DNA of 64,000 nucleotides from a virus (Duplodnaviria; Heunggongvirae; Uroviricota; Caudoviricetes), in IMG/VR virus record IMGVR_UViG_3300031133_000383, positions 32,001-96,000 of that record; one strand, written 5' to 3'. A program made the position numbers and the translations under genes. Shown in pieces: positions 10,818 to 31,027 of this stretch. The notes beneath the pieces are model-generated. The model searched no databases and had not been told where the DNA came from. It saw only the letters and a list, made by a program, of their open reading frames with translations. Position 1 is the first letter of the stretch. The number at the start of each line of letters is the position of its first letter.

Positions 10818-11396
10818 TCACATTATTTTAGAGGTTTCATCAAAAGGGAGCCTTGGTAATCGATTGTAAATTTTATCAGTTATTCCATAGCCCATGTTTA
10901 TTAAAAAATTTGATTGAACGGAAGTACCTTCAAAAAAAGCAGCATCAAGGCCAATATTATCAAATCCAGACATAGGTCCAACATCCAGCCCTAAAGCTCT
11001 TGCAGCTATCATTAAATATCCACCTGATAGCGTTCCATTTCTGAAAGCTGTTGTGTCTACCATTGTTGGATTCCCGTCAAATAAACCTCCTATATCAGCG
11101 ATAGGAAAGGTTTTGTTCAACAAGTGATGAAACTTATAATCTGTGGCAACAATTACTGTCACAGGAGCATTCATTGTTTTTTCAATATTTCCTTCCATTA
11201 GAAATGGTCTCAATTTTTCTTTAGAATTTTTTGATTTTAAAAATAAAAATCTAGCAGGTTGAGCATTAAAAGCAGTAGGAGCCATTTTTGTTAAATCATA
11301 AAGTTGATGAATTATGTCATCTGATACTTCTTTTTCTTGAAATTTACTCACTGTCCTGCTTTCCGTAAATAATTTGTTTAGTATATCTTTATTCAT
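10818..11396 (-). CDS. nitroreductase, RutE-like (malonic semialdehyde reductase family)
   Basis: LFTESRT, APTAFNAQPARF, GNIEKTMNAPVT, AARALGLDVGPMSGFD, RLPRLPF motifs. Confidence 0.88.
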   Translation of the reverse strand: MNKDILNKLFTESRTVSKFQEKEVSDDIIHQLYDLTKMAPTAFNAQPARFLFLKSKNSKEKLRPFLMEGNIEKTMNAPVTVIVATDYKFHHLLNKTFPIADIGGLFDGNPTMVDTTAFRNGTLSGGYLMIAARALGLDVGPMSGFDNIGLDAAFFEGTSVQSNFLINMGYGITDKIYNRLPRLPFDETSKIM

Positions 11397-11406
11397 AAAG
11401 TTCTCC

Positions 11407-11853
11407 TTATTTATTTAAATGATTATTAATGATGTTGTCTACACTATATTTGCCACTACCAGCAATGAAAATAGCCAAAGAAACTACAAGCAAAATCAAT
11501 ATATATTCAAAGCCGTTATTTGACATAAAGAATCCATTAGCTAAATGAACGGTCAATAATGCCACGACAGACACAATACTGGTCAATATAGCTGCAGGAC
11601 GTGTCAGTAAACCCATCATTAATAATAGACCACCAAAAAATTCGCCTGAACCTGCCAACAATGCCAAAAGTCCACTAGGTTCTAATCCAATAGATGCAAA
11701 ATACCCTGCTGTACCTGTAAGGCCGCCTCCACCAAATAAACCGAATAATTTTTGTGAGCCATGCATTAAAAAAATGAGGCCGACAATTAAACGTAAAAAA
11801 GTTAATTCTATTCCAGATTTTGAACTTGTTGTTTTTATTAATAATTGTTTCAT
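11407..11853 (-). CDS. DoxX family membrane protein
   Basis: LRLIVGLIFLMHGSQKLFG, EFFGGLLL, NGFEY, GSGKYSVD. Confidence 0.92.
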   Translation of the reverse strand: MKQLLIKTTSSKSGIELTFLRLIVGLIFLMHGSQKLFGLFGGGGLTGTAGYFASIGLEPSGLLALLAGSGEFFGGLLLMMGLLTRPAAILTSIVSVVALLTVHLANGFFMSNNGFEYILILLVVSLAIFIAGSGKYSVDNIINNHLNK

Positions 11854-11952
11854 CTAACACTCCCTAATTTGTTAATTACACTATAACACTCTTGCAATCA
11901 AGAACAATTATGGTAAAGTGAAATTCATTTTTCCAAATATGAGGTCAATCAA

Positions 11953-12774
11953 ATGGATATTAATTCATTGGTTATTTTTTTTAAGGTAGCCGAAACAAGC
12001 AGTTTGACAAAAGCATCAAAAGTTTTAGAGATACCTGTTTCAACAGTAAGTCGTAAATTACAAAAACTAGAAGAAGATCTGGGCAATAAATTATTTCATA
12101 GAACTACACGCAAGATTTCATTAACACAAGAAGGTAATATTCTCTACAACAAAGCAAAGCCACATTTTGTCGAATTAGAGATGGTGGGTAACGAATTGGC
12201 TGGAAATGATATAATGTTGAAAGGAGAAATTAGAGTTACAGCCCCTATCGAAAAAAGAGAATTCTTAGCAGAACGCATTTCTTCTTTCAGACAGCTTTTT
12301 CCAAACATTAGTATACATCTAAATTTTTCGAATGATTTTCATGATTTAGTAGAAAACAGTTTCGACTTTGCTTTTAGAGCGGGTAACTTGCCTGATAGTG
12401 GCATGTTTTATCACAAGATAGGCAATGAGCATTTATGTGCTTACATTCATAAAAGATTCATGCCTCACAGTATCACATTGGAATCACTAAATGAGTTTGA
12501 CTATTTTGTCATGGAGAAAAATACTTTTTTAGAAACCAGTGATGGTGTTGTTTTCAGACCTGAAAACAAGGTTACTTCTAATTCTATAGAGTTTATTTTA
12601 GATCTTGCAAAAAAAATTCCAAGTATCATATATGTTCCTGCTGGTATGGTGACAGATGATTACATTAAAATTAATGTATTCAAAGAAAAGACAGCAAGTT
12701 TTCAAATTGTATATTTGAGTAAACAACAAAATAAAATATGTCAATCATTTCTTGATTTTTTCAAAAATAATTAA
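11953..12774 (+). CDS. LysR-type transcriptional regulator, divergent from doxX-nitroreductase
   Basis: N-terminal HTH SLTKASKVLEIPVSTVSRKLQKLEEDLGNKLFHRTTRKISLTQEG; DLVENSFDFAFR. Confidence 0.92.
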   Translation: MDINSLVIFFKVAETSSLTKASKVLEIPVSTVSRKLQKLEEDLGNKLFHRTTRKISLTQEGNILYNKAKPHFVELEMVGNELAGNDIMLKGEIRVTAPIEKREFLAERISSFRQLFPNISIHLNFSNDFHDLVENSFDFAFRAGNLPDSGMFYHKIGNEHLCAYIHKRFMPHSITLESLNEFDYFVMEKNTFLETSDGVVFRPENKVTSNSIEFILDLAKKIPSIIYVPAGMVTDDYIKINVFKEKTASFQIVYLSKQQNKICQSFLDFFKNN

Positions 12775-13370: not shown

Positions 13371-13667
13371 GCCTTTTAGGGCTTTTTGGTGCTTTTTTTT
13401 CAATGTTTATTTAGTGTTATAATGCTATAATTAACGCCTTGTTTTTAATCATTTTTTGCTTATTTTTAGGTGTCATTTTTTTGTTTAATATTAAAATATT
13501 AGGGTTTTTTTAGACATGTAGTGTTTTTAGATTTTGATAATATTAATCGTTTTTTTTAGAAAAATTTACGATATTTTGTGGATGTGGTGAGCGTAATTAT
13601 GTCATGTCAACAGTGTGAATAATGTCAAAACAATCAAGCCTTGACATTTTCAGCAATGTTTTTTATG

Positions 13668-14183
13668 TCAAAAGACCAAATGATTATCGCGAATGTAATC
13701 AATTACTTCTGGTCTGGTCAATCCATCAATGGTTTCACCTATTTTAAGTTGTTGACGAATGAAAGTGCTTCTAACTGTTCCCAAATCTGGAATGATGTAT
13801 TTTCCGAATTCTTCGTCAATCAATTTATAATTGTAGAATCGTTTCCAATTTTCTATACTTGCATTGTCTTCACCACAAACAAACACATAATCATGGTTGG
13901 GGTTATTTTCTTTTAATGTTTTAAGCAGTAAATAAGTCCTGCTAACTTCATTTTTGAAAATCTCTTGCTCAATATCAGAAACCTCAATATTTTTGTCCAA
14001 ATGACTGACCAGCAGTTTGGCCATGTTCAATCTATCTTTGAAATTAATCATCTTTTTTCCAAAGTTGTGAGAAAAGCATGGGACTACTAAAACTTTGTCG
14101 AAATTTTCCACCAAATGTTCTATTATTTTTAGATGGCTATTGGTGGGTGGGTTGAAGGCAGATCCAAAAACGGCTATTTTCAT
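13668..14183 (-). CDS. nadD: nicotinate/nicotinamide mononucleotide adenylyltransferase, NadD-like
   Basis: MKIAVFGSAFNPPTNSH (T/HxGH-type), VLVVPCFSHNFGK, RLNM, FVCGEDN, VRSTFIR; GAGG RBS. Confidence 0.85.
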   Translation of the reverse strand: MKIAVFGSAFNPPTNSHLKIIEHLVENFDKVLVVPCFSHNFGKKMINFKDRLNMAKLLVSHLDKNIEVSDIEQEIFKNEVSRTYLLLKTLKENNPNHDYVFVCGEDNASIENWKRFYNYKLIDEEFGKYIIPDLGTVRSTFIRQQLKIGETIDGLTRPEVIDYIRDNHLVF

Positions 14184-14211
14184 TTTTACACCTCTCTTTT
14201 TATCTAATTTT

Positions 14212-14240
14212 ATCTTAGTTGATTTATGCAACTATGTCAA
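14212..14240 (-). promoter_or_regulatory. sigma70 promoter of the nadD-like gene
   Basis: TTGACA-17-TAAGAT. Confidence 0.6.
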
Positions 14241-14349
14241 TAGCCCGTTATTTATGTCTCTGATATTATCAATTAAATTATCCTATTGGTAAATTTGACA
14301 TAATCCACTCAAATGCTAACATGTCTTGAATATAAATTGGGAGAGATAC

Positions 14350-15078
14350 ATGTTAAAAAAATTAAAAGTAATACCTTTGTTATTGTGTATAGTGAGTGGG
14401 CATTCTATGGCCCAAACCAATATAGACTACGATTATGTGAATAAGACTTTGGATAAAGATAAAATATCCAATGAATCACGGGAAAATATTAAAAATATAA
14501 TTGATCAAAAAAACATTAAAGATAGAGAGGTGATATTTAATCCTGCAATCGCTTCTGTTAAAAATGTTGATTTGGAAATTCAAGAATATATTATTCAAAA
14601 CCCATCTAAGAACCTTAAAGAATTTGATGAATCAATAACTAAAGCAAAGGATTCAAAAGAAATTGAAACTTTGTTGAGCACTATAGGCAATTTAAGTGAA
14701 CATACTATCTATAACTTTGATAATGTGAGTTTAGAAAGACCTATTCATTTTAGAAATGAACAAAATCATAAAAGCATTAATAAAGAATCAAATAATAATA
14801 AATATGGCAAAGTATTCAGTGCTTATAACTTTAATATCAGGATATATGATCAAGTTACTGATTATTTTGTCATGGTGAACGGCAATACTAATAATAGTTA
14901 TGTATCAGATGATTTTAAAGGATCTGTAAAAAATGATGATAAAAACGGCAGTGGATTCAACAATTTTGAACATTCATTAAGTGTAATAGGTGGTCAATAT
15001 ATAGTGATGTCCGCTGTACAATCAAAAGTTCAATCAAATATAAATGAAATGCGATTAATTCTGATTAAGATTGATTGA
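14350..15078 (+). CDS. exported hypothetical protein
   Basis: signal peptide MLKKLKVIPLLLCIVSGHSMA. Confidence 0.75.
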   Translation: MLKKLKVIPLLLCIVSGHSMAQTNIDYDYVNKTLDKDKISNESRENIKNIIDQKNIKDREVIFNPAIASVKNVDLEIQEYIIQNPSKNLKEFDESITKAKDSKEIETLLSTIGNLSEHTIYNFDNVSLERPIHFRNEQNHKSINKESNNNKYGKVFSAYNFNIRIYDQVTDYFVMVNGNTNNSYVSDDFKGSVKNDDKNGSGFNNFEHSLSVIGGQYIVMSAVQSKVQSNINEMRLILIKID

Positions 15079-15159
15079 TTTAAATTAACACCCTATCAAG
15101 GGTTTTTTTATTAAATTTAAAAGTATTATAATACTTTATTCAGTTTATAAAAATAATCG

Positions 15160-15188
15160 TTGACAAGTTAGTTCGTTTTTGCTACTAT
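15160..15188 (+). promoter_or_regulatory. sigma70 promoter of pncB
   Basis: TTGACA-17-TACTAT with extended TG. Confidence 0.65.
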
Positions 15189-15233
15189 GTACACAAGAAA
15201 TCAAAATAAATCTCAAAAATTGGAGAAACTATC

Positions 15234-16463
15234 ATGAACGAACAAATTATTACCTCATTGCTTGATACCGATCTTTATAAATTAACCATGATGCAGGTGG
15301 CTTTTCATAAATTTCCCAGTGCTGTTGTTGAACATGAATTTCATTGTCGAAATAAGAATGTGGATTTAAGTGTCATTGCACAAGAAGTTCGGGAACAAGT
15401 TGATGCATTGTGCGAACTTTCTTTTACTAAAACCGAATTGGATTACCTTCGTCGTCGCATGCACTTTTTGAAAAGAGACTTTATTGACTTCCTTGGTATC
15501 TTTCGCTTTGATCCCAATCAAATTACTGTACGGGCTAAAGAAGGTGGTTTGGAAATTAAAACCTTTGGTCCTTGGTGGCAAACAATTCTGTATGAGATTT
15601 ATGTATTGGCTATTGTGAATGAAGTGTATTTCCGTCATCAGACCAAAGATATGACTGAGCGTCAACGCTATGATATGTTTGAAGAAGGTCATCGTCGTCT
15701 TGAAGAAAAAATCGCATTGGTCAAAAATGTTGATGGGTTTATTTTTACAGATTTTGGTACTCGTCGCCGGTTTAGTAAGGAATGGCAGTTGGAAGTATTA
15801 AATCATTGCAAACACACTATTCCAGAAAAATTGTTTGGTACTAGTAATCTATATTTGGCTCGCGAATTGGATATCACTCCCATTGGCACGATGGCTCATG
15901 AGTATCTGCAAGCATTTCAAGCTTTTGAAAACCGTTTGGTTGATAGTCAGAAAGCTGCATTGGAAGCTTGGGTTCAAGAATACCGTGGCGATTTGGGTGT
16001 GGCATTGACTGATGTAATTGGTGTGGATTATTTTCTAAAAGATTTCGATCTTTACTTTGCTAAATTATTTGATGGTGTACGACATGACTCTGGTGATCCC
16101 ATCGAATGGGGTGAAAAATTTATTGCACACTATGAGAAGTTGAAAATTGATCCACGTAACAAACTATTGGTTTTCAGTGATGGTCTCAATTTTCCTAAAG
16201 CCGTTAATATTTTCAATCACTTCAAAGGGCGTATTAATACCAGTTTTGGTATCGGAACTAACTTGACTAACGACCTTGGACTTGAGCCTTTGAATATCGT
16301 AATGAAAATGATTAATTGCAATGGTAAACCCGTCGCTAAAATTTCTGACAGTCCGGGTAAAGGCATGTGTCATGATGATGATTATGTGACTTACTTGAAA
16401 AAAGTGTTTGATGAGAAACCTGCACTGTTTAATAATCCGAGAAATGATTATTTTATGTCATAA
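15234..16463 (+). CDS. pncB: nicotinate phosphoribosyltransferase
   Basis: SLLDTDLYKLTMMQ, DFGTRRRFS, GTSN, GTMAHE, RHDSGDP, FSDGL, FGIGT, AKISDSPGK. Confidence 0.96.
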   Translation: MNEQIITSLLDTDLYKLTMMQVAFHKFPSAVVEHEFHCRNKNVDLSVIAQEVREQVDALCELSFTKTELDYLRRRMHFLKRDFIDFLGIFRFDPNQITVRAKEGGLEIKTFGPWWQTILYEIYVLAIVNEVYFRHQTKDMTERQRYDMFEEGHRRLEEKIALVKNVDGFIFTDFGTRRRFSKEWQLEVLNHCKHTIPEKLFGTSNLYLARELDITPIGTMAHEYLQAFQAFENRLVDSQKAALEAWVQEYRGDLGVALTDVIGVDYFLKDFDLYFAKLFDGVRHDSGDPIEWGEKFIAHYEKLKIDPRNKLLVFSDGLNFPKAVNIFNHFKGRINTSFGIGTNLTNDLGLEPLNIVMKMINCNGKPVAKISDSPGKGMCHDDDYVTYLKKVFDEKPALFNNPRNDYFMS

Positions 16464-16547
16464 AAATAAAAAGAGGCTTGATTTTCAAGCCTTTTTCTTT
16501 TATTTTATTTAATTATATGATACAATTACCACTCTATCGGAGTATAT

Positions 16548-17231
16548 ATGAACGATTATAATGACGATCTTATTGAAAAAATTTATGAGTTGACAATGTG
16601 TAATTCTCTTGTCACATTTCATCAAGATTTCAGTTATGATAAGCAAAATAATTTTAAAAATGCACAAGAGTTTACTTTTGATAAAAGTCTTCTTCAGTTT
16701 TCTTATAAAGATATGATTGATTGCTATGCTTTAAAGGACACTGTGCATAAAATGGATCAAGGCGAGAATGATTTGAGTTTTGATCAATTTGAAACAAGTT
16801 GGCAGCCAGAAGGCGATTTGAAAACTCGTTTTGATCTTGCTTATGTTGAAATCAATAAACTTCGAACTGGTCTTCACAATGTCATTACTGCACTAGGAGA
16901 AAAACCATCTGAGTTTATTTCCATTCGCCATTCCGTGTATTTTGATATGAATAATAAGCTATATCAAAATGAGATCAAAGTAGATTTATGTTATCGTAAT
17001 AAGTGTATCAACAGCAGTTTTATGATTTACGTCAGTGATTTTAATAATTATTTACGTATAACAATAAACTGTGGTCAGCATTGCAAGTCTATCAATGTTC
17101 AGAAAATAAATCCATTTTCCTTATCTTTTATGATATTTGATGAAAAAGAAGATTTATTTAATCTAGAAGATATTTATGATATTGATCAAGTTGTGGATCT
17201 TTTCAAAGTAAATCACATGTCAATCTATTAG
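16548..17231 (+). CDS. hypothetical protein, family A
   Basis: GGAG RBS; ends KVNHMSIY. Confidence 0.8.
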   Translation: MNDYNDDLIEKIYELTMCNSLVTFHQDFSYDKQNNFKNAQEFTFDKSLLQFSYKDMIDCYALKDTVHKMDQGENDLSFDQFETSWQPEGDLKTRFDLAYVEINKLRTGLHNVITALGEKPSEFISIRHSVYFDMNNKLYQNEIKVDLCYRNKCINSSFMIYVSDFNNYLRITINCGQHCKSINVQKINPFSLSFMIFDEKEDLFNLEDIYDIDQVVDLFKVNHMSIY

Positions 17232-17239
17232 GTGACTCT

Positions 17240-17884
17240 ATGAAAATTAATGAAATATTAATAAATAACCCTCATATTAAATTTAAACATCTCGATGAAA
17301 CCAATATGGAGGATGGGGTGATGTTCTTTCAAGAGCATGCTATCTGTAGTAGGGCAAACGATGATAGCTATGTTTTGATCCTGAGTAATGGTTTTAATTC
17401 AGAGACATCTCCACACGATTATAACGATTTTATTAATCAGTATATACCTAACTGTCAATTTATTGAAGAAAGGATCTCTAATAGCCTCAGATACTTCTAC
17501 AATAACATTATTGTAGCCACTGGTGAATTATTCAAAGTCCATTCTTTAAAATTTTCCAATATGTGCAAAGCGAGTATCAGGTTATTTTTTGATATACACA
17601 CACAGGAATTAAAAGAAATCAAAATATTTATGTTTCTGCATATTGAGCACAATGAAAAACATATCTATTTAAATATTTCAACAAACATAGATAAAGATTA
17701 CAATGTTTCATTTTCTGTCATGAAAAATGGAATATCCTATAATAATATGGAAAGGGTCAACCAACAATTCTTGAATATTATTTGTATGGAAAAATTTGAA
17801 AATGTGATCAATGATCTTTATTTTGATTATAGTTTTGAAGATGTTTTAAGATTGAGGCAATTATTGATTATCAATAAATATTGA
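17240..17884 (+). CDS. hypothetical protein, family A
   Basis: ends QLLIINKY. Confidence 0.8.
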   Translation: MKINEILINNPHIKFKHLDETNMEDGVMFFQEHAICSRANDDSYVLILSNGFNSETSPHDYNDFINQYIPNCQFIEERISNSLRYFYNNIIVATGELFKVHSLKFSNMCKASIRLFFDIHTQELKEIKIFMFLHIEHNEKHIYLNISTNIDKDYNVSFSVMKNGISYNNMERVNQQFLNIICMEKFENVINDLYFDYSFEDVLRLRQLLIINKY

Positions 17885-17899
17885 AAGAAGCAATAAAAT

Positions 17900-18592
17900 A
17901 TGAACCTATTAATGGAACATATGATCGAACCATTCATAGGGGGAGTTCATAAAATGAACTTGAGTGCCATAGAAAAAAAGTACACAAATGTAATTAAGCA
18001 TTCCATTTTTCTGAAAATGAGTGCAAAGCCAAGCTTTATCTTGTCCGATAGTTTTAGGTTTCATCTATGTCCATTTCAGGATAAAATAACATTGATATTT
18101 GTGGTATCAGTCAATGAGGGATCATTTTCTAGGATACTCCAAAAACATGGTTATTTTCTAAAAAAAGAACTAAACGATTTAGTAGACAATCATTTAAATA
18201 AATGTCATCAGGTGATCCACTTATTAAAATCTGTCGTGAAAAAGATATTTGTTTTTCAAATAGAGTTGTTGTTGACTTTCAATACCAAGAACGAATTAGA
18301 ATCTTGTACTTTAAATATTATTATCGATATGGATGATATTGTTCAAATGTATGAAATTAAAGTCAACATTGATGATTTGAATCAATGCCAGTATTTTTAT
18401 CGTTCTATTGATTCAAATAAAAACTTCTGCCAGAATACAATAAATCCAACTGATCTTGGGAATCATTTTATTATTGAGTTCATAAGACAAAAACTCAGGG
18501 TGCTTAAATTAGATAACGATATAGATCTTGAATCCATTTCAATCAAACAGATTAATGAATATTTGAATTTGATTTCAATGCACAGTGTGTAA
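17900..18592 (+). CDS. hypothetical protein, family A
   Basis: ends NLISMHSV. Confidence 0.8.
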   Translation: MNLLMEHMIEPFIGGVHKMNLSAIEKKYTNVIKHSIFLKMSAKPSFILSDSFRFHLCPFQDKITLIFVVSVNEGSFSRILQKHGYFLKKELNDLVDNHLNKCHQVIHLLKSVVKKIFVFQIELLLTFNTKNELESCTLNIIIDMDDIVQMYEIKVNIDDLNQCQYFYRSIDSNKNFCQNTINPTDLGNHFIIEFIRQKLRVLKLDNDIDLESISIKQINEYLNLISMHSV

Positions 18593-18639
18593 CTTCATAG
18601 TGTTGAAAAAGTTTTTCAGCAGTTTATTTCGATCATGCA

Positions 18640-18945
18640 TTATCTTAAAGTTTCCAATATCTGTTTCATTGTGTTAACTTCACTGCTTATAGTAATTAAT
18701 TCTGTTTCGCTTACTGTTTTTATATCATCTCTGACTTCATTTATATTAGGGTTGATAACTTTTAGTGCTTTTAACGTACTCATTTTTAATTGATAGTATT
18801 TGCTAAGTTTCGAAATTGTAAATTCAAAAATAATTTTAACATTATCAAAGTCATTGTCTGTTAGTTGACAAACTTCTTTTAATTCCTTGATAAATTGTTC
18901 ACCATACCGAACCTCTATTAACATTAATAATCTTTGATATTCCAT
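18640..18945 (-). CDS. hypothetical protein
   Basis: AAGGAG RBS; 101 aa. Confidence 0.7.
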   Translation of the reverse strand: MEYQRLLMLIEVRYGEQFIKELKEVCQLTDNDFDNVKIIFEFTISKLSKYYQLKMSTLKALKVINPNINEVRDDIKTVSETELITISSEVNTMKQILETLR

Positions 18946-19300
18946 TTCTTACTCCTTTTTTTAATAATAACATTATATTTTATTTATATCTATGATTTTA
19001 TAATATTACTTCTATTTTTCAACTATTTGATGTTATCACTTTTTTTTGGATTTATTTCGAATGTGTATGTATGATGTAAAAAACATCCTTTATTCTTATG
19101 TCAAAAAAATCAATATTCATCCATTCTAAAAAATCTGATGATCTTTAATTTCTTGTTAAAACAATAATAAGCCAGATTATAACTTTAAGATTACATCGAA
19201 CCCTTAAGATAATAATTATATAGTTATTATCTATAATTATTTGAAAAAAATTTTCCTTTTATGCAAAAAAATGATATGATAACTCAACTTTGGAGACTAT

Positions 19301-19864
19301 ATGTTAACATTACTTGCTCATACCCATTTTACATCAGACATCCTTTTCAGATGCAGAGAAAAAGTTCAACTTCGTGGCTATTCATCTGTCGAAGAAATGG
19401 AAAGTTCAATTGTGAAACATTGGAATTCTAAGATTTTACCCACTGACCACATTTATTATCTTGGTAACTTTTCGTCTATTGTAAAAGGTTCTGCTCAGTC
19501 CTATTGCAATTTAATTTATGAATTGAATGGTTTCAAGCATTTTATCATGGGACCACACGACAATGTGGATGTTTTCGAAAATCTAAAAAAGGATGACAAT
19601 TTAAACATTGTTGAAGTAACTGCCTATAAAGAATTAATGATTTTAAAACAACGTGTTGTTCTTATGCATTATCCTATTCAAGAGTGGAATGGAAAGAAGG
19701 GGCTTCGGCCAGCAATCCATTTACATGGAGGTCCCAGCATTGATCAACCAGATTCAAACAGAATGAATATATCATTTGACTCACAACAGACAATCTATTC
19801 AGCAAAAAATATTCTTGATAGATTTAAAGCTCAACAATGTTCTCTTGGAAAGGAAACACTATGA
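19301..19864 (+). CDS. calcineurin-like metallophosphoesterase homologue with degenerate metal ligands
   Basis: AHTHF, WNS, YYLGNF, LNG, GPHD, HYP, HLHGG align with family motifs SDxHF, LGDF, GNHD, HGHxH. Confidence 0.75.
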   Translation: MLTLLAHTHFTSDILFRCREKVQLRGYSSVEEMESSIVKHWNSKILPTDHIYYLGNFSSIVKGSAQSYCNLIYELNGFKHFIMGPHDNVDVFENLKKDDNLNIVEVTAYKELMILKQRVVLMHYPIQEWNGKKGLRPAIHLHGGPSIDQPDSNRMNISFDSQQTIYSAKNILDRFKAQQCSLGKETL

Positions 19865-20337
19865 ATTTTATTCAATCTTTATTTGAATATGATAATTTTT
19901 TTAATGTAGACGAAGGTTTTATCGTTGATATTGAAAACAATCATTCAGTTGGCCTCTACCTTCATGGTAGGTGTCATTTATTTGCATTGAAATTGCATGA
20001 GATGACCCAGTATCCTCTCAGTGCTTATATTGAACTTGAACCTTGGGATGACAATTACAATATTATGGACAAACCTGCTCTCATTCATGCTTTTTGTATT
20101 CTGAATGATAGTTTATCAATTGATGCTTTTGGAGTTCGTTTTCAAAAAACAGTTGAAGCAGAGTATTGCTTTGAAAGTAATGAACTATTAGTTATTCATG
20201 GAGAAGAAGCTAGAAAACTGCTTGTAGATTGGATAGAAGCTGATTTGTTGTATGATTATGAAGAACATGAAGAACAGGCTTTGGAACGATATATACAACT
20301 TATGATTGATAATAAACTGTTTGTATTGAAATCATGA
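19861..20337 (+). CDS. hypothetical protein with conserved-looking C/H/D residues
   Basis: AAGGA RBS; ATGA overlap; YLHGRCHLFALKLH...HAF...DAFG. Confidence 0.75.
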   Translation: MNFIQSLFEYDNFFNVDEGFIVDIENNHSVGLYLHGRCHLFALKLHEMTQYPLSAYIELEPWDDNYNIMDKPALIHAFCILNDSLSIDAFGVRFQKTVEAEYCFESNELLVIHGEEARKLLVDWIEADLLYDYEEHEEQALERYIQLMIDNKLFVLKS

Positions 20338-20470
20338 ATTGATAAAAAAAAGATATTTGATTGTGTTTTTATCCAGAATAACATCTATATACCATTTCAT
20401 CGTTTTCTTTTGCATTTGAATATTAATCATGATATCATTAAGTAATTAAAAATTCACTGTTGAGGTAGAT

Positions 20471-21133
20471 ATGAATAGTAGTAGAAAATCAAATATCATT
20501 GAAAGTCTTGAAAAAAATATCAGTGCTTCTGGTAAAATTTTGAAATTGACAGAAGCAGCAGACTATAAGCCTTTAGAGCGAGATGATGAGTTCAGGTTTT
20601 TTATTGATGATAATTATTATACTGTTTATTCAAATGATGATATACAACCATCTCACATCTATGATTTATTATTTATTGATGAAGATAGCAGCCTTAGTAT
20701 TTTTGAAACTTTTTCAACATTGAGCAAAGCAGCATTTTTTAAGTGTTTAAATACCTTTTATCAGGATCTTGCATTTCTATATTTTTTTGCTTTTGGGCAG
20801 TCAGCAGACGTAAAGAAACCAGAATCATTGAATGATATTCTTGAAAGTATTTATTATGATGGTGATAACTATTTTTTTCGTCTAACAGTGGGTAACATAG
20901 AAACAGATGCCGTTTTTCTTATCTATTTTGATTTTTTTATTAATACTGAAACACATGATGTTTATTGGGAAAATCGATACAGATCACATATCAATGGTAA
21001 TTTGGTTTCTTTTGATACTTATGATGATTTAAAACAGAGTTTTATTAAACGCTATATATTGAGTCCCCTGAATAAAAGTCAACCCGAACTGGCGTGGAAT
21101 GATTACAAAATTTTGCAGATAATAAATCATTAA
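20471..21133 (+). CDS. hypothetical protein, family A; paralogue of the next gene
   Basis: GAGG RBS; ends PLNKSQPELAWNDYKILQIINH. Confidence 0.8.
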   Translation: MNSSRKSNIIESLEKNISASGKILKLTEAADYKPLERDDEFRFFIDDNYYTVYSNDDIQPSHIYDLLFIDEDSSLSIFETFSTLSKAAFFKCLNTFYQDLAFLYFFAFGQSADVKKPESLNDILESIYYDGDNYFFRLTVGNIETDAVFLIYFDFFINTETHDVYWENRYRSHINGNLVSFDTYDDLKQSFIKRYILSPLNKSQPELAWNDYKILQIINH

Positions 21134-21141
21134 GGTGTATT

Positions 21142-21825
21142 ATGCATTCCACAGCACTTATAAAATCTTTACGTTCAATCATTAAATATCCTTATCAGAT
21201 AGATGGAATGCGATCACTCAATGATTCATCCGCCATGGTTCAAATATCCAATCTTGATAGGCCAGTAGATAAGTCTATGATAATGTATGTGTCTAAAATT
21301 TATACTCAAAAAAATAAATCAAAATTCTATCTTGAATTTGATGATCCTTTGCTGTTACTTAAATTTAACGATATCTTTGAAAATGAAATTGATTTTTTAA
21401 AAATATCACAAGAGATGTATTACAAGTTTAATTTTATCTATACTTATATACTGGGCAAGTCCGTCAATTATAATGGGTTTCCACACAGTCTCAAAGATAT
21501 GATTGAATATTATGACGCTACACATAGTCAATCAATGGGTAGTTATATATTTAAAACAGTGGTAACCGAAGATAATGATCATGAACCTTTAAAATATATG
21601 TTTATTTTAAGTTATGATATTTGTGAAAACATTTTTAAAATTGATTTTGATTTTTCAATGAATATTTTAACGCCACAAATTAAAACTTACTTTATTGAAT
21701 CTGCTCAAATAGAAAAAGTTATTGATATCCTTGTTTCTCAATATGCTTGTAAACCTTTAGATAAATCTCAACATGATTTATGTTTGTCCGATCATGCTAT
21801 TCTAAAAATACTTAATTATAATTAA
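21142..21825 (+). CDS. hypothetical protein, family A; paralogue of the previous gene
   Basis: ends PLDKSQHDLCLSDHAILKILNYN. Confidence 0.8.
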   Translation: MHSTALIKSLRSIIKYPYQIDGMRSLNDSSAMVQISNLDRPVDKSMIMYVSKIYTQKNKSKFYLEFDDPLLLLKFNDIFENEIDFLKISQEMYYKFNFIYTYILGKSVNYNGFPHSLKDMIEYYDATHSQSMGSYIFKTVVTEDNDHEPLKYMFILSYDICENIFKIDFDFSMNILTPQIKTYFIESAQIEKVIDILVSQYACKPLDKSQHDLCLSDHAILKILNYN

Positions 21826-21902
21826 AACAACAATAATAATTGCTTAATATTTATTAATTGACTTTTTATGATATACTATAATTATCCACAAAAAAATAAA
21901 TT

Positions 21903-23735
21903 ATGAATTTTATTGAGCAAGCAAAATTGTTTGAACGAGCCGAAAATCTTAAACACAACTATCCTGAGAATTATAGTTTAACTTCAATGTTGAAGCTACC
22001 TATTAAAGAACCTTCCTATGTTATTAATGATATTCTTTATGAATTTAAGAAAATGGCGGATAAAAATATTGTTTCTCTTTTAAATATCATCCCAAAAATA
22101 GACAAAAATGAATTCAACGAAGTAACTGATCTTTACAATACTTCTGATTATCATAATCATACCAAAGCGACTACTTCTAACGTTTTAAACTATATAGAAA
22201 ATATTTACAACCAATTTAAAAATATAGCCAATGAATATGGTATTGTTTTCCCAAAAAGTATTGAATTAGAAAAAAATAATATACTACAAGAAGTTGAAGA
22301 TTTTACAAATAAATTTGAACAGTTTTCAGATTTTTTTGAAAAATATAAAGTGATAGAAAAATTTTATGTACAAAACAAAATGAGTCCAGAAGCTGATTTT
22401 TACAGGGAAGAACTGCAAAACACTATAGAAGAATATAGTCATATAGTCAATATTAATATGGCTAAATTTTTTATAAATAATACAGTAAGTCATGGTCAAA
22501 ATTCAAAGGATATTGTATTGTTTCAATTATTTGATAGGCTTTCTATTTTAATTTCAACGATGCAAGATGAAATGAAATCACAAAATCTACAATCGCTGGC
22601 TACAATGGCCAGTCAGTTTATTATTGCTCAATCTATCGATAGCAGTGATGTAAAAAGTTTTCTAACAACAAAAAATTTTAGTGATGATATAGACTGTCGT
22701 ATACAATTGACCAGTTCTCAAAAAATAAGTGAAATGATTAACTTTAAAGATGGATCAACTATTGTCAAACAACGTAATAACCCTTATGAAGAAGTATCAG
22801 TAGATAAAGTTCGAAATGTAACTTATGACTTATTTGACTCTATTATTGATTATAAATTTAGAAAAAAACCAAGAATTGGAACATTGTTCAAAGAGAAGTA
22901 TAAAGAAGAAAGGGGGCTATTATTTGAATATGTTGATGTAGCTATGAATACTTATTTAGACAATGAAGCTATTTTAAAAAATGTTAAATTTGATTTATCT
23001 ATTTTTAAGTCTAAGGATTTTGAAGAAATAGACGATGCAATGAATGCCAGTATCAATACGTATAAAATAGATCGTTATGCCAATACAATATTGAGTACAA
23101 AATATAAACATTTGTTGACAGCAAACGCATTGGAAAGTTTCAAGGAACTTTATGAGGCCAAAATTTCTACAACTGATTTACAGAATTTAATCGGAAAAAA
23201 ACTTGCAGCGATTCAAAGTCCAGAAGAATTTGAGCAGTATCTTGACAAAGTTGTCAAGCAATTTAATGGTTTCAATACAGAAACTCTTTTAACCAAGTTG
23301 TCTTCTTTCAACATTGAACCATTATTATCTGACAATGATGTTTATGTGTTTGAAATCAAAAATTTTGAAGAATCAAAAAATTTGGGTAGTGCCAGTTGGT
23401 GTATTGCTCGTTCTGAACATTATTTTGAAAATTATACAGATTATGGCAATCGTCAGTTTTTCATCTATGATTTCAATAAAAAAGAAACCAGTAATGAGTC
23501 AATGATTGGCATCACAATAAAACAAAATGGTGATTTTCATACTCAGCATTTGAAAAATGATGATTTTATTCGAGCAAATGACTTTTTGAAAGATATTCGG
23601 AAGAGATTGATTTTAAAAGAACCTGAAAAGTATGAATTAAATAACCAATTAAAGCAAGAGCTAGGCATTGAGAACAATAATGATTTCAATGATGAAAAAA
23701 TTGAAAATAAGAAAAAGTTAAAGGTGGTTATTTAA
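21903..23735 (+). CDS. large hypothetical protein with GS-x-SWCI domain; paralogue of 39916..41787
   Basis: shared blocks ILSxKYK, IGKKLAA, GSxSWCI, IYDFNK, TQHLKNDD. Confidence 0.85.
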   Translation: MNFIEQAKLFERAENLKHNYPENYSLTSMLKLPIKEPSYVINDILYEFKKMADKNIVSLLNIIPKIDKNEFNEVTDLYNTSDYHNHTKATTSNVLNYIENIYNQFKNIANEYGIVFPKSIELEKNNILQEVEDFTNKFEQFSDFFEKYKVIEKFYVQNKMSPEADFYREELQNTIEEYSHIVNINMAKFFINNTVSHGQNSKDIVLFQLFDRLSILISTMQDEMKSQNLQSLATMASQFIIAQSIDSSDVKSFLTTKNFSDDIDCRIQLTSSQKISEMINFKDGSTIVKQRNNPYEEVSVDKVRNVTYDLFDSIIDYKFRKKPRIGTLFKEKYKEERGLLFEYVDVAMNTYLDNEAILKNVKFDLSIFKSKDFEEIDDAMNASINTYKIDRYANTILSTKYKHLLTANALESFKELYEAKISTTDLQNLIGKKLAAIQSPEEFEQYLDKVVKQFNGFNTETLLTKLSSFNIEPLLSDNDVYVFEIKNFEESKNLGSASWCIARSEHYFENYTDYGNRQFFIYDFNKKETSNESMIGITIKQNGDFHTQHLKNDDFIRANDFLKDIRKRLILKEPEKYELNNQLKQELGIENNNDFNDEKIENKKKLKVVI

Positions 23736-25360
23736 TGGAACTAAATTTTAAAAAATTAGCTGAGTTTATCTCAGCCTATGTAAAAGAAAATGACTTGATT
23801 AGCAATACAGAATTTCCTACATTGGCCTTGTATAAATTTATTAAAGAATCAAGCCTAGATGATACAGTCAAAACAAATTTGATGTTGACAGATAAAGGCG
23901 TTTTGGTTATTGGGCAATATGATGGCGTTCTGCTAAAGAGTTGTATACGTTTAGATTTTGTAATAAATGCAGATTCAATAGGGTTTGATAGCCAGTATCC
24001 CATAACAGATGATATGATATTAATGGTACATGAAAACACTTCTAAAATGGGAAAAAAAAAGATTATTAACGAAATTAATAAAAAAAACATACTCTCGATT
24101 TATAATGCTTTGGCAACATGTAATAATTTGTCAGATATTTATTCTAATATTCCTGAAAAAGCTATTAATAATGATATTGTTGATCGTGGAATTTATAAAA
24201 TTACAGACATTGTAATAAATTACAATAAATATAAGGAAAATAATAACAATGATTTTGGTCGTAAAGATAATAATTATTTGGAAAGAACATTGAAAGCATT
24301 ATTTAATGCCTGTGAAGTAAATGATGAAATGCAAGGTGAGAAAATAAACAAGTTGGTTAGTCACATTTGCAATGCTGTAAAATCAGGAGATTCTTTAGGA
24401 ACAGATGCTTTATTGAAAAGAGCTAATGCCCAAAAAATAATTGGCGTAAGAGAGGATGTTTTTATATCCAATAAAATTTTTCAATCACTGTCTTTGAAAG
24501 ACTCACTAGCCAAGACATTGTTTGATAGCTTTAATGAAGGCGGTGTCAATCAATTAATCAATGATGTTTATAAACAACATATCATGCCTAATGTACAATC
24601 AAAATATTCTTTATTATCAAAAATGATGTCTAAACAGACTACGTTGGAATCACGATTGGATCAAACAGACGTTAACGACTTAATAAACAGGATAAGAGTT
24701 AAACATCCTTATGCATTTAAAGATAATGAACTGTATTCCTTTAAATATCTACAAAAAGAAAAAGATGATTTATATTCAAACACTCAAGAGTTATCTGGTT
24801 TATTGAACAATTTTGGATTAATCCCTGCTCAACATATAAATGTTTTATTAGAGACTTATACTGATACCTATTATCTTAAACAAGGAAAATTTATTGAAAA
24901 ATTTGATCTCGAAAATTGTATTCAATTTGTAGGAAAAACTGAGATTGCTGTAAAGTATCTTATTACAGGCCATTTAACTGATAATATTTATGATGATCTT
25001 GTAGATAATTCAAAAATAAAAGTATTTAGAGTCTCTTCTATGGTAATGCAAAATGAAGCAGATAACCACTATAATAAAATAGGTTTAGAACAATTATTTA
25101 ATTATTGTAAGAATAATAATTTTGCTTTATTAATTAATCATGATCATCTCGATGAAGAGTTACTTAAAGTCTATCCAGTATTTAAAGAAGTGGCTGCTAA
25201 TTATAAGTCAACTGTTTATTTAATGGATGAAGGTCCCAATTCAGAAGCTATCTTTAAATTATTAGAATGGAGAGATGATTTAAAATCCTTAATTAATAGC
25301 TATAATGAAGTAAAATTATTAAATAAAAAAAATAAAAATTTAGATATTTTCGATTATTAA
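23735..25360 (+). CDS. large hypothetical protein; partner of the previous gene and weak paralogue of 38264..39913
   Basis: TAATG stop/start overlap. Confidence 0.8.
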   Translation: MELNFKKLAEFISAYVKENDLISNTEFPTLALYKFIKESSLDDTVKTNLMLTDKGVLVIGQYDGVLLKSCIRLDFVINADSIGFDSQYPITDDMILMVHENTSKMGKKKIINEINKKNILSIYNALATCNNLSDIYSNIPEKAINNDIVDRGIYKITDIVINYNKYKENNNNDFGRKDNNYLERTLKALFNACEVNDEMQGEKINKLVSHICNAVKSGDSLGTDALLKRANAQKIIGVREDVFISNKIFQSLSLKDSLAKTLFDSFNEGGVNQLINDVYKQHIMPNVQSKYSLLSKMMSKQTTLESRLDQTDVNDLINRIRVKHPYAFKDNELYSFKYLQKEKDDLYSNTQELSGLLNNFGLIPAQHINVLLETYTDTYYLKQGKFIEKFDLENCIQFVGKTEIAVKYLITGHLTDNIYDDLVDNSKIKVFRVSSMVMQNEADNHYNKIGLEQLFNYCKNNNFALLINHDHLDEELLKVYPVFKEVAANYKSTVYLMDEGPNSEAIFKLLEWRDDLKSLINSYNEVKLLNKKNKNLDIFDY

Positions 25361-25454
25361 TTTAATTAATAAAATAAATAAAGTCTTTTTATTATGAAAT
25401 ATGGCTTTTTTAAAAGATTGTGCTAATGTATATTTAATTATACGGGTGATCATT

Positions 25455-26003
25455 ATGTTTCTAGATATAGACTTCTTAAAAAACAATCACGAATTGATTC
25501 ATTTTTTTGGACTGGGTTTTGTCCAAATTAAAATAGATAAAAATCTCAGACTGCATTTTTACCATCCTGAACTACAGCCCATTATTCATGAAGAAGAGAT
25601 TCACAATCATCGATATGATTTTATTTCTACTGTATTGGCTGGAAAACTTACACAGGAAATTTTTGAGATACACGCAGGTGAAAGTGACTTTTACATGGTA
25701 GAAGAAAATTGTAAAGCTGAAAAAATTATCATGCCTGATAAAATTCCAGTAATCGTTAAACCCATTTCTATCCAGCATTTTAAAAAGGGCGAAAGTTATA
25801 CTTCATTAACCAACCAATTTCACAGAGTAGTTACTGATTTTGCTATTACTCGTTCATATCGCGGAGAATCCAACAGTGTAAATGCTCTATTTATCAAAAA
25901 CAAGAATGTTATTGAAGGTGCGTCCATTAGTAAAAAACTTACTTTGGATGAATGCTGGGCGATTGTAGAAAGTTGTATTCATCTTAGTAAGTCTACATTC
26001 TAG
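25455..26003 (+). CDS. cupin-like (HxH) hypothetical protein
   Basis: GLGFVQ, RLHFYHP, IHNHRYDFISTVLAG, FHRV. Confidence 0.65.
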   Translation: MFLDIDFLKNNHELIHFFGLGFVQIKIDKNLRLHFYHPELQPIIHEEEIHNHRYDFISTVLAGKLTQEIFEIHAGESDFYMVEENCKAEKIIMPDKIPVIVKPISIQHFKKGESYTSLTNQFHRVVTDFAITRSYRGESNSVNALFIKNKNVIEGASISKKLTLDECWAIVESCIHLSKSTF

Positions 26004-26058
26004 TAGACTTGTTCTCAATAACAATGTATTATTGTTGTCCAGATATAAAGGATTAAAT

Positions 26059-26873
26059 ATGAAAGATTTTATAAGAATAATAGACATCGGTCAGCTAGAA
26101 CTAATTAATTTTAAAAACTCAATTTCACGTCACATAAATATAAAAAATTTTGATGTGGTGTTTGAAATTATTCCTTTTGATATGACAAGAGCCATGGTAT
26201 ATATTCGAGATCTTGAAAATAACACAATGAATAGAGTTGGACAAATTATTTCTTATTTTTCAAACTGTTCATTGCCTGATGATGTCGTTTTTTATTTTTA
26301 TCCTGATTATGTTTTTTTTGAATATTATTCTGGTGATATTAAAGCCATACTGGATATTAGCACATCATTTCATGAGGCTTTTGTACATTATTTTGAAAAA
26401 AGTCATTCAACCTCTATTACTAAAAGAATGCAGTTAAAAGATTTTGAATTCAACATAGCAAATAAACCCAATATTATTTTAGTTGAAAACAGTCATTTTT
26501 CTAATTTGTCGCTTAAATATTTTAACCAATTCATTTTCGATTTCAAAAGAAATGGCGAATTTATAGAAAATATTAAAATGAATTTCAATAATAGTTCTGT
26601 AGATTTATTTAGTAAATCAATGGCTATTGATGGACAACTAGACTTTACATTCACTAAAAAAGAACACTATTGTTTGATTGATAGTTCAGGTAACAATAAA
26701 TTAAAGTTGAATTTGATAATCCTCAAATAGCTACCAGCATTATTGATGATCTATATTATACTGTTTATTATGGATTGATGTTCAAAATGTGCAACATAGA
26801 ATTTATACCAAAACAAGAATTTCTAAAACATAAAGAACACTACAATACTATTTTAGACATCTTTAAACAATAG
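26059..26873 (+). pseudogene. family A gene split by an apparent 1-nt deletion near 26700 (or a sequencing error)
   Basis: main frame stops at 26730; the -1 frame is open 26700..26873 and ends EHYNTILDIFKQ, which fits the family A motif. Confidence 0.6.
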
Positions 26874-26877
26874 ATAG

Positions 26878-26906
26878 TTGACTTTTGCGATTAAGTGGTA
26901 TATCAT
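26878..26906 (+). promoter_or_regulatory. sigma70 promoter of nadE
   Basis: TTGACT-17-TATCAT. Confidence 0.6.
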
Positions 26907-26958
26907 GCTTATAAATAGAAAATATTGCAGTTAATAATATTAATTAAGGAGATATAAC

Positions 26959-27825
26959 ATGAGTAAACTAATTTATGGTTCCGCAGAATATGAAGCACTG
27001 AAGAAAGAAAGTCTAGCAGAGTTTGGTGTAGTACCCACTGAAAAATTTGATGTTGAAGCAGCGATTCGAGACCGTATTGATTATCTTAAATCTTTTCTGA
27101 AAAGTACAGGTTTGAAAGGGTTTGTGTTGGGTATTAGTGGTGGTGTTGATAGTTCAACTGTTGGCCGTCTGTGTCAGATTGCGTGTGAAGAACTAAGAAC
27201 AGAAGGTTATCAGGCACAATTTATAGCCATGAGGCTTCCAGCAGGTATTCAAGCAGACGAAGATGATGCTCAGGAAGCTATTAAATTTATCAAAGCCGAC
27301 AAAATGATGACTATTAATGTGGGTGAAGCAGCCGCCAATCTCAGTATTCAAGGCGTAGAGCAATTTAAATCAGTAGAAGGTGTTTCGCCCACTGATTTTC
27401 AAATTGACTTTAATAAAGGCAATATTAAAGCACGTCTTCGTATGGTTGCACAGTATCAGGTGGGTGCCATGTATTCTGCTGCCGTTATTGGTACTGATCA
27501 TAATACAGAAGGTGTTTGCGGTTTTTGGACCAAATGGGGAGATGGTGCTTGCGATCTCATTGTACTCAATGGTTTGAATAAAACACAAGTACGCCTCGTC
27601 GCCAAAGCTTTAGGTGCTCCTGAATTTTTATGGAGTAAAGTTGCCACGGCTGACCTTGAAGAACTTGCACCACAAAAAACTGATGAATCTGCATTGGGTG
27701 TTGATTATAATGTTTTAGATAAATATCTTGAAGGTTATGATATTGATAAAGAAGTTGAATTTAAAATTGTTCGTCAATATCAAATCACACAGCATAAAAG
27801 AAAGCCTATTGTAAGTTTTCAATAA
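26959..27825 (+). CDS. nadE: NH3-dependent NAD+ synthetase
   Basis: VLGISGGVDS, GNIKARLRM, VIGTDH, GFWTKWGDG, LNKTQVR, TADLE, TQHKR; AAGGAG RBS. Confidence 0.96.
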   Translation: MSKLIYGSAEYEALKKESLAEFGVVPTEKFDVEAAIRDRIDYLKSFLKSTGLKGFVLGISGGVDSSTVGRLCQIACEELRTEGYQAQFIAMRLPAGIQADEDDAQEAIKFIKADKMMTINVGEAAANLSIQGVEQFKSVEGVSPTDFQIDFNKGNIKARLRMVAQYQVGAMYSAAVIGTDHNTEGVCGFWTKWGDGACDLIVLNGLNKTQVRLVAKALGAPEFLWSKVATADLEELAPQKTDESALGVDYNVLDKYLEGYDIDKEVEFKIVRQYQITQHKRKPIVSFQ

Positions 27826-27826: not shown

Positions 27827-27850
27827 AAAGCTCCGAAAGGAGTTTTTATT
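27827..27850 (+). terminator. intrinsic terminator after nadE
   Basis: AAAGCTCC-GAAA-GGAGTTTTT. Confidence 0.75.
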
Positions 27851-30370: not shown

Positions 30371-31027
30371 TTGAAACAAAGTAAACGAGATAGAATCAAT
30401 TTCAGTTTGAATGAAATTCATAACGATGTAATGGAATTGTTCAAAATAGATCAAGATGTTCGAGAATGTTATATTGATATTCTGGATACTTTTGAATCTG
30501 ATTATTCCTATTATGAAGATTATGCTTATCCTTATTTCATGAAAGAAAATATAGCCATGGTTAATGATTTTAATCAGCAATATAAAATTACCAATCAAGT
30601 ATTGGATAAGAATTATATTGAAGACCATAATAATGCTTACTTTATGATAAATTTTGAGGATATACGTTCTGATTGTACACATCCTTTGGTTATTTTGTTA
30701 CTAGAACATTACTCGGGTCTAGCTGATTGTCATTCCTTTAATATATTCTTGGCTTATCATCAGCCTAAATGGAATTATAGGACAGAAATAATATTAAAAG
30801 TTTTTATTAATGATCTCGACTGTAAGTGGCCTAGTCGCAATGTCAATGAATTGAATTATATCAATAATCAAGTCTATCCATCTTTTGTAGAAACGGGTTT
30901 CCATAAAGTTATCTATAATGACTTAAAATTGAGACCTTATTTTTACAAGAGATTGGACATGAATGAAGACTATATTGTGACTCATTTTGATGACGTTAAA
31001 TGGTTATTGGAAGCTATTGATTATTGA
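30371..31027 (+). CDS. hypothetical protein, family A
   Basis: ends WLLEAIDY; start codon uncertain. Confidence 0.75.
   Translation: MKQSKRDRINFSLNEIHNDVMELFKIDQDVRECYIDILDTFESDYSYYEDYAYPYFMKENIAMVNDFNQQYKITNQVLDKNYIEDHNNAYFMINFEDIRSDCTHPLVILLLEHYSGLADCHSFNIFLAYHQPKWNYRTEIILKVFINDLDCKWPSRNVNELNYINNQVYPSFVETGFHKVIYNDLKLRPYFYKRLDMNEDYIVTHFDDVKWLLEAIDY

Follow-up and report, generated by a model that had tools for sequence, protein, structure and literature searches.

A predicted nicotinate-to-NAD+ gene set on a 437-kb virus-classified contig

Genes at the locus and their products

Three genes whose products are predicted to convert nicotinate to nicotinamide adenine dinucleotide (NAD+), namely pncB, a nadD-like gene and nadE, lie close together in DNA from the IMG/VR virus record IMGVR_UViG_3300031133_000383. 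The stretch analysed here, called the window throughout, comprises 64,000 nucleotides and spans positions 32,001 to 96,000 of that record (G000:C1:32001-96000), which is a single contig of 437,043 bp with 31% G+C, linear and 98% complete by CheckV. Coordinates are those of the window unless marked as genome positions, and the replicon that carries the genes is referred to as the element. The features of the locus are these (aa, amino acids; ORF, open reading frame):

13668-14183, minus strand: short-type NadD (VPA0413 / PRK08887 type), 171 aa; PF01467, NF006479 below its cut-off, motifs, Shine-Dalgarno site
14240-14212, minus strand: promoter-like site of nadD, TTGACA-17-TAAGAT; consensus match only
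14326-15078, plus strand: orphan ORF whose N-terminus is predicted to resemble a signal peptide; outside the pathway, matching neither Pfam nor NCBIfam families
15160-15188, plus strand: promoter-like site of pncB, TTGACA-17-TACTAT with extended TG, 46 nt 5' of the ATG; consensus match only
15234-16463, plus strand: PncB, 409 aa; PF17767, PF04095, NF003704, TIGR01514
16470-16496, plus strand: strong intrinsic-terminator-like hairpin after pncB, with a T run behind its 12-pair stem
26878-26906, plus strand: promoter-like site of nadE, TTGACT-17-TATCAT, 53 nt 5' of the ATG; consensus match only
26959-27825, plus strand: ammonia-dependent NadE, 288 aa, single domain; PF02540, NF001979, SGGVDS
27827-27846, plus strand: intrinsic-terminator-like hairpin after nadE

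All three genes are intact at these coordinates. A first reading made from the letters alone (the sequence-only reading) had described three intact genes within about 14 kb, and the family matches and catalytic motifs bear this out. It was also right that the genes do not form one operon: nadD and pncB diverge across a gap of 1 kb that holds one orphan ORF, and nadE follows 10.5 kb downstream of pncB, the interval holding 12 ORFs (11 on the plus strand, 1 on the minus strand). The whole span from 13668 to 27825 contains 16 larger ORFs on both strands, three of which have clear family matches; the other 13 gave no Pfam match, nor did the six of them that were also run against NCBIfam match any family there. 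The TTGAC-17 promoter that had been assigned to each gene is present as described, in the form of a consensus match only. Such promoter-like matches number 139 as against 106 +/- 10 in shuffled sequence, which is barely above chance, and because AT-rich DNA yields near-chance numbers of matches the sites are consistent with the claim and no proof of it. Together with the terminator-like hairpins, they are consistent with pncB, nadD and nadE being separate transcription units.

Only the start of nadD has to be moved. The gene had been drawn as an ORF of 187 aa (13668-14231), and the gene itself stands, but its true start is most likely the ATG at 14183, giving a product of 171 aa. This start is favoured because the promoter-like site sits inside the 187-aa extension (the TTG at 14231 falls within its TTGACA element), because a GAGAGG site lies 6 nt upstream of ATG 14183, the TTG having no ribosome-binding site, and because the homologues on record are all 171-180 aa long. 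The pncB gene is preceded by a GGAG site and nadE by an AAGGAG site.

In the Preiss-Handler pathway PncB makes nicotinate mononucleotide (NaMN) from nicotinate and phosphoribosyl pyrophosphate (PRPP), NadD adenylylates NaMN, and NadE amidates the product to NAD+. The PncB of the element is full-length with both domains, the N-terminal PF17767 and the catalytic PF04095, and it scores well above the NCBIfam cut-offs for NF003704 (571.7 bits, cut-off 379) and TIGR01514 (518.2 bits, cut-off 269.55); its closest solved structure is P. aeruginosa PncB2 (PDB 1YIR, 422 bits). Going by the equivalog-level match, it would use nicotinate, rather than nicotinamide, and PRPP to form NaMN, with stimulation by ATP. 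NadE matches PF02540 (4.1e-57), its sole domain, there being no glutaminase domain, and NF001979 (328.1 bits, cut-off 250), with an SGGVDS PP-loop at residues 60-65. Among PDB entries it scores 261 bits to 5WP0, 250 bits to B. subtilis 1EE1 and 245 bits to the V. cholerae-type 3Q4G, and since it groups with these canonical NH3-dependent enzymes the route would be the standard deamidated one. A Francisella-type route (NadE*) was ruled out: the F. tularensis enzyme 3FIU, known as a nicotinamide mononucleotide (NMN) synthetase, gives 87.9 bits only, as against 245-261 bits for the canonical enzymes.

The NadD-like protein matches PF01467 with 49.4 bits (cut-off 21; 6.9e-13), and carries the motifs GSAFNPPTNSH at residues 7-17 and RSTFIR at residues 138-143, in which H17, S139 and R143 do not vary across 31 homologues. 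Its closest structure is PDB 3H05, the Vibrio parahaemolyticus protein VPA0413 (87.8 bits), canonical NadDs reaching at most 52 bits, and it is filed by sequence in the short VPA0413-type subfamily and not as a curated equivalog. Literature searches for VPA0413, 3H05 and PRK08887 gave chance hits only, and no paper on the protein was found.

A functional lead for this family comes from its gene context. We collected 158 loci around the short NadD type from GTDB genomes and metagenome contigs, and in 113 of them nadE and/or pncB lies within about 10 kb, mostly as a divergent neighbour: 91 have nadE (mostly in Vibrionaceae), 18 have pncB (in Cellvibrionaceae and Alteromonadaceae) and four have both. 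Four genomes of marine gammaproteobacteria (A. fischeri ES114, A. sifiae, Aestuariibacter and Zooshikella) were checked for a further NadD, and no second NadD-sized CTP_transf_like gene was found in them, the other CTP_transf_like genes being of CoaD, HldE and RibF size, so that the short protein appears to be their sole, housekeeping NadD. Since these four genomes depend on NadE, the short NadD family would have to adenylylate NaMN. Its assignment as a NaMN adenylyltransferase is, as a strong inference of this kind, well supported, and the element's own NadD would be expected to share the preference for NaMN.

Conservation of the trio and the proposed route

The three genes recur together in relatives of the element. 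The closest relatives of NadD are 60-68% identical and all metagenomic, the best match among 185,579 GTDB species genomes reaching 45% identity. Across the element's relatives PncB is 69-86%, NadD 60-68% and NadE 54-87% identical, against 25-48% for the surrounding orphans. The divergent nadD-pncB pair was found in seven metagenome loci, four of which (L090-L093) are syntenic with the window from 8.9 to 21.8 kb, with identities of 78-81% for an MscS-type channel, 67-71% for a RutE-like reductase, 68-73% for a LysR regulator, 63-67% for NadD and 78-83% for PncB; the intervening orphans are variable, at 25-48% identity or with no counterpart, and nine of ten such orphans lack a Pfam family. The two genes are spaced 35-230 bp apart in relatives, and the orphan at 14326-15078, absent from these, has been inserted between them in the window. 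Relatives of nadE at 59-87% identity share contigs with relatives of nadD and pncB (604,313, 165,204, 81,402, 110,650 and 1,859,102 bp), all three genes being co-resident on those of 604,313, 165,204 and 1,859,102 bp; the NadD, PncB and NadE proteins of the 604-kb contig are identical to those of the element. In the locus L095 all three genes lie within 7 kb. By sequence comparison, then, the trio is a stable feature of the lineage.

Some neighbouring features deserve mention in their own right. The stretch from 8913 to 12774 forms a cell-like backbone, syntenic in L090-L093 at 61-81% identity, made up of the MscS-type channel, ORF 11407-11853, the RutE-like malonic semialdehyde reductase and the LysR regulator, between which orphans of about 200 aa turn over. 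L095 has two tandem nadE-like ORFs, at 230-1084 (284 aa, full-length, 54% identical) and 1200-1763 (187 aa, 64%), which may represent a duplication or a broken copy. Adjoining nadE in the window is ORF 25401-26003 (plus strand, 200 aa), with a 49% identical counterpart at L095 1875-2435; its nearest ESM Atlas clusters are 64-92% viral and consist of Uroviricota hypothetical proteins with a cupin-like fold. We considered this ORF as a hidden nicotinamidase and rejected it, given these viral cupin-like neighbours and the lack of an Isochorismatase match.

The chromosomal relatives of the NadD place the element's copies in a wider setting. The VPA0413-type nadD-nadE loci of Vibrionaceae and the nadD-pncB loci of Cellvibrionaceae and Alteromonadaceae encode NadD proteins that belong to this short subfamily (34-45% identical), and the divergent chromosomal nadD-pncB arrangement is the same as in the element's relatives. 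Those copies are chromosomal housekeeping genes, whereas the element copies form separate subclades: the NadD tree, a quick one with many open forks that resolves no donor, has several deep element-type subclades apart from the chromosomal copies.

Three leaf or seed metatranscriptome runs and one dairy DNA run were mapped to the 11-29 kb part of the window. Contigs from the RNA libraries, at 99% identity or more, cover 13667-14085 of nadD, 15534-16349 of pncB (in three runs) and 26841-27693 of nadE, as well as 14453-14742 of the orphan ORF; the region from 17.6 to 21.2 kb has no RNA-library contig, and the dairy DNA run covers it throughout. These contigs are a hint of transcription and not a measure of it.

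It might be supposed that the trio is functionless cargo of recent host origin, now decaying, since it sits among fast-evolving orphans and has acquired an orphan ORF between nadD and pncB. We think this very improbable indeed: all three genes are intact with their catalytic motifs and are represented in the RNA libraries, they have kept 54-87% identity across diverged relatives in which their neighbours have kept 25-48%, and the deep element-type NadD subclades point to long residence.

The other genes for NAD+ metabolism were sought by six-frame searches of all 437 kb. The sequence-only reading had seen neither pncA nor nrtR in the window, which holds for the whole record, and it had suggested looking through the rest of the replicon for pncA, prs, nrtR and Nudix genes; the first three were not found there, and the Nudix search returned four NUDIX ORFs, all generic and, at 129-174 aa, not long enough for NrtR or NudC, so that both identities were rejected. 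SIR2, Tpt1/KptA and a second NadE were likewise not found in the 437 kb. PncB is the only NAPRTase-family gene of the record, so there is no Nampt or Namat, and there is only one CTP_transf_like gene. At genome position 203147-205018 lies an NAD-dependent DNA ligase (LigA), with 388 bits to phrog_3869 and a PF01653 adenylation domain, that falls below the NCBIfam LigA cut-offs; because of this ligase the element encodes at least one consumer of NAD+.

We therefore favour, as a somewhat probable interpretation, that the three genes are an element-encoded Preiss-Handler module, an auxiliary set making NAD+ from nicotinate in a gammaproteobacterial carrier cell. The deamidated pathway from PncB through NadD to NadE had already been proposed for these genes, and it gains support from the gene neighbourhood, from the conservation of the trio and from the canonical NadE; the conserved trio and the cellular gene neighbourhood in particular strengthen the pathway reading. 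PncB would convert nicotinate and PRPP (with ATP) to NaMN, the short VPA0413-type NadD would form nicotinate adenine dinucleotide (NaAD) from NaMN and ATP, and the single-domain NadE would turn NaAD, ATP and NH3 into NAD+. Such a module would most likely keep up the NAD+ pool during replication of the element, the ligase being an NAD+ consumer, and it would also buffer NAD+ loss of any kind. The element offers no entry of its own from nicotinamide, NMN or ADP-ribose. Starting from nicotinamide or ADP-ribose would need the host's PncA; alternatively, a host PncC might return LigA-derived NMN to the module as NaMN. We infer both the enzyme activities and the benefit to the element.

Several points weigh against this interpretation. 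The NadD-like protein stays below the cut-offs of its best NCBIfam match, NF006479 (1.2e-38, 132.7 bits, cut-off 164), and of TIGR00482 (82.2 bits, cut-off 112.45), and the entry for its closest structure, 3H05, is titled "uncharacterized protein", the short NadD type having no enzyme assay on record. No isochorismatase or PncA gene was found in the 437 kb, nor were pncC/CinA, PnuC or a PRPP synthetase (Prs/Adps-like; Pribosyltran_N), and the input of the pathway therefore depends wholly on the host. RNA-library contigs can hold DNA and give no expression levels. The record may be a fragment and hence incomplete, and should the replicon turn out to be cellular, the trio would simply serve its everyday salvage.

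The nature of the replicon

The sequence-only reading had spoken of a mobile element. The classification as an IMG/VR virus record agrees with this, but no virion or packaging gene was found. Six-frame Pfam searches over the 437 kb gave no match for Terminase_6N, Terminase_6C, TerL_ATPase, Gp23, Phage_capsid or Phage_sheath_1, and none for a family-B DNA polymerase; a Terminase_3 match at 56153-56398 (minus strand), of chance-level score (14.5 bits), with two in-frame TAG codons and near a tRNA-Thr gene, is probably noise. The record has 40 ORFs of at least 420 aa, of which 36 were scanned with PHROGs and seven, in the window, with Pfam, three of them with both. The 36 scanned with PHROGs include no terminase, capsid, portal, sheath or polymerase, and the seven in the window no virion, packaging or polymerase family. 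By tblastn, the TerL, capsid, portal, protease, primase-helicase, RecA, single-stranded DNA-binding and baseplate proteins of the Xanthomonas jumbo phage XacN1 found no match in the record. Stop-codon recoding was rejected as a cause of the missing large genes, as coding density and longest ORF are equal under codes 11, 15 and 4.

What the large ORFs do contain is in part cell-like. For ten of the 40, matches in Pfam, PHROGs or NCBIfam supply a function: three are transposases, and the rest are DnaK, LigA, SerRS, TilS, a chemoreceptor, a peptidase M3 and an ATPase. Two "HNH" matches stand unverified, a tRNA ligase having been labelled HNH. The longest ORF of the record has 778 aa. A full-length SerRS is encoded at genome 230740-232023 (TIGR00414, 505 bits), a DnaK 73% identical to the Pseudomonas-type protein at genome 182807-184708, and a TilS-like lysidine synthetase at 30987-32252 of the window. 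SerRS, TilS and DnaK have been reported for huge phages. Three insertion sequence-type transposase genes (phrog_506) lie at genome 309621-311264, 321855-323288 and 421236-422594, and the relative L091 has a TnpB/Cas12f-like ORF at 2332-4038; mobile insertions are active in the lineage. The record further has 26 tRNA genes in arrays, five of them for Met, five for Ser and one a CUA suppressor, and it has PHROG families and accessory proteins in common with phage XacN1. The standard genetic code fits the record and the translation style is bacterial, with a Shine-Dalgarno-like site before 54% of ORFs against a background of 6.5%, by which a giant virus of eukaryotes was ruled out.

Near-identical DNA over the 10 kb around nadD and pncB is present in data sets from the phyllosphere, which is the likely source, and from dairy, leaf, plant and seed samples (in naming habitats, runs with a small share of sampled words were excluded, except for three RNA runs), and none was found in phage and plasmid collections. 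Single-protein scans of IMG/VR gave no match for PncB or NadD and one distant locus for NadE; scans with a NadD alignment and with a 778-aa XacN1-like protein gave no match either. Syntenic relatives each occur on a single contig, one of 0.52 Mb, one of 1.54 Mb (Ga0247725_1000001) and one of 1.86 Mb (Ga0308158_10000001). Relatives of nadE were recorded on contigs of 1.33 and 1.90 Mb.

These observations bear on whether the contig might instead derive from an uncultured, AT-rich gammaproteobacterium, as part of its chromosome or of a chromid, and carry ordinary salvage genes. Such an origin would suit the lack of TerL, capsid, sheath and family-B polymerase genes in the six-frame Pfam search, the lack of any virion, packaging or polymerase protein among all 40 large ORFs, the size of the contigs that hold syntenic and NadE relatives, and the presence of genes for LysR, MscS, a chemoreceptor, TilS, DnaK, SerRS and LigA. 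We nevertheless consider it unlikely. The record is classed as viral, most of its large ORFs have no family, the named functions being confined to the ten listed above, and the 437 kb contain no translational GTPase where each of five cellular genomes has 11-13. The tRNA set, with its arrays, its five Met and five Ser genes and its CUA suppressor, is phage-like, as are the accessory proteins common to XacN1; the Atlas clusters of ORF 25401-26003 are 64-92% viral; and none of the 185,579 GTDB species genomes yielded a relative above 45% identity.

The 437 kb thus lack the core gene set of a phage as well as that of a cell, and it is the case for a complete phage genome, rather than that for a viral nature, which the missing hallmarks weaken. 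On the most economical reading the record is probably an arm of accessory genes belonging to a larger phage-like genome; that the origin is cellular is less likely than this. The right end of the relative L093 (Ga0308157_10000049, 520,353 bp) maps by synteny to within about 2 kb of the left end of the record, which points to a genuine end of the genome or to a terminal repeat boundary that is conserved. A bolder proposal would be that the NAD genes belong to a lineage of AT-rich, orphan-rich, non-cellular megabase replicons, far larger than any described phage, of which the record would be an accessory arm devoid of all replication and virion genes; this we regard as quite improbable. A literature search on phages above 1 Mb found nothing relevant. 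The nature of the replicon needs to be clarified before any further conclusion is allowed to depend on its being a complete phage genome.

Relation to known NAD+ synthesis systems

The interest of the locus had been seen in the complete route being carried by a phage. This no longer holds, as such sets were published in 2024 (PMC11662467) and are annotated in phage G: the complete Preiss-Handler route is already known in huge phages, and the element adds one more case. The 2024 study, in Microbiome, defined a group of 174 "NAD-jumbo phages" in which a salvage or Preiss-Handler set is complete, among them a pncB-nadD-nadE cluster in Kuafu_71 and the Preiss-Handler route in Kuafu_19, and proposed a role in counter-defence; an earlier review treats the NAD+ synthesis systems of jumbo phages (Iyer et al., PMC7824862). 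Like the element with its 437-kb contig, the NAD-jumbo phages exceed 200 kb and carry every gene of one NAD+ route, and they also carry NAD-consuming enzymes (PMC11662467). Compared by description, they are phages of the animal gut in which capsid and terminase genes are recognised, whereas the element comes from leaf and dairy sources and these hallmarks were not found in it.

Bacillus phage G (NC_023719, 497 kb) offers what is in effect a more complete version. Within 6 kb its annotation lists an isochorismatase (gp275, PncA-like), a nicotinate phosphoribosyltransferase (gp277), a KptA-like RNA 2'-phosphotransferase (gp280), a nicotinate nucleotide adenylyltransferase (gp281) and an NAD synthetase (gp283). 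Phage G thus resembles the element in being a huge phage with PncB, NadD and NadE (25%, 32% and 44% identical by tblastn), but its genes are clustered on one strand and include the PncA-like gene and the NAD-consuming KptA, whereas those of the element are spread over 14 kb with nadD divergent, PncA and KptA were not found, NadD is of the short VPA0413 type and PncB of the gammaproteobacterial type. In the 735-kb phage LR756501/LR756503, tblastn matches to NadD, NadE and PncB lie at 31133-31717, 428818-429432 and 430311-431429, the latter two adjacent; PMC11662467 describes this phage as carrying nadD only. In Sinorhizobium phage Phosso, PncB and NadE are immediate neighbours. Vibrio phage KVP40, by contrast, has a biochemically proven two-step NAD+ salvage by NadV and NatV (PMC11662467, PMC7824862) that follows the amidated route, with a Nampt and a bifunctional NMNAT-Nudix enzyme and no PncB or NadE, whereas the route of the element would be deamidated.

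The NAD+ reconstitution pathways known as NARP1 (Adps + Namat), NARP2 (Nampt + Nmnat) (10.1101/2024.02.11.579819) and NARP3 (PnuC + NadR) (PMC13464706) bear on a further explanation, since for them NAD+ synthesis was experimentally shown to offset NADase defences. The trio might be a dedicated counter-defence, a deamidated equivalent of these pathways: NADase defences (Thoeris, SIR2-HerA, DSR and Gabija-type systems) release nicotinamide, which host PncA would deamidate, whereupon PncB, NadD and NadE would rebuild NAD+ fast enough for replication. That phage NAD+ synthesis can counter NAD+ depletion (10.1101/2024.02.11.579819, PMC13464706) speaks for this, as do the like proposal made for NAD-jumbo phages (PMC11662467), the conservation of the trio in the lineage and the PncA-like gene beside the trio of phage G, by which nicotinamide entry is sometimes virus-encoded. 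The NARPs themselves use other enzymes and starting points. NARP1 starts from ADP-ribose and nicotinamide, NARP2 from nicotinamide and NARP3 from nicotinamide riboside, none with an amidation step, whereas the route of the element would start from nicotinate and pass through deamidated intermediates; PncB, NadD and NadE go unmentioned in 10.1101/2024.02.11.579819 and PMC13464706, and none of the genes of the three NARPs was found in the 437-kb record. Against a dedicated counter-defence, the record yielded no pncA, Nampt/Namat-like or Prs/Adps-like gene, the route would cost ATP in three to four steps and call for a host enzyme as well, the genes are scattered and not gathered in a single early operon, and their neighbours are orphans and no known anti-defence genes. 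We would call a dedicated counter-defence tentative and somewhat unlikely as the reason for the trio. In a broader sense the gene set may serve in counter-defence. The observation that is confirmed, the gene set itself, is ordinary for huge phages.

Under the preferred interpretation, a Preiss-Handler module supporting NAD+ supply in the carrier cell, the locus differs from the described cases in having a NadD of the short VPA0413 type and scattered, monocistronic genes, and in its leaf and dairy habitat. If the carrier were indeed a megabase bacterial virus or virus-like element, its Preiss-Handler genes would stand alongside many other functions of a cell-like kind, such as DnaK, SerRS, TilS, LigA and the tRNAs. 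For the VPA0413 / 3H05 family, so far uncharacterised, the locus and its chromosomal counterparts provide a functional lead, as a NadD tied to nadE and pncB.

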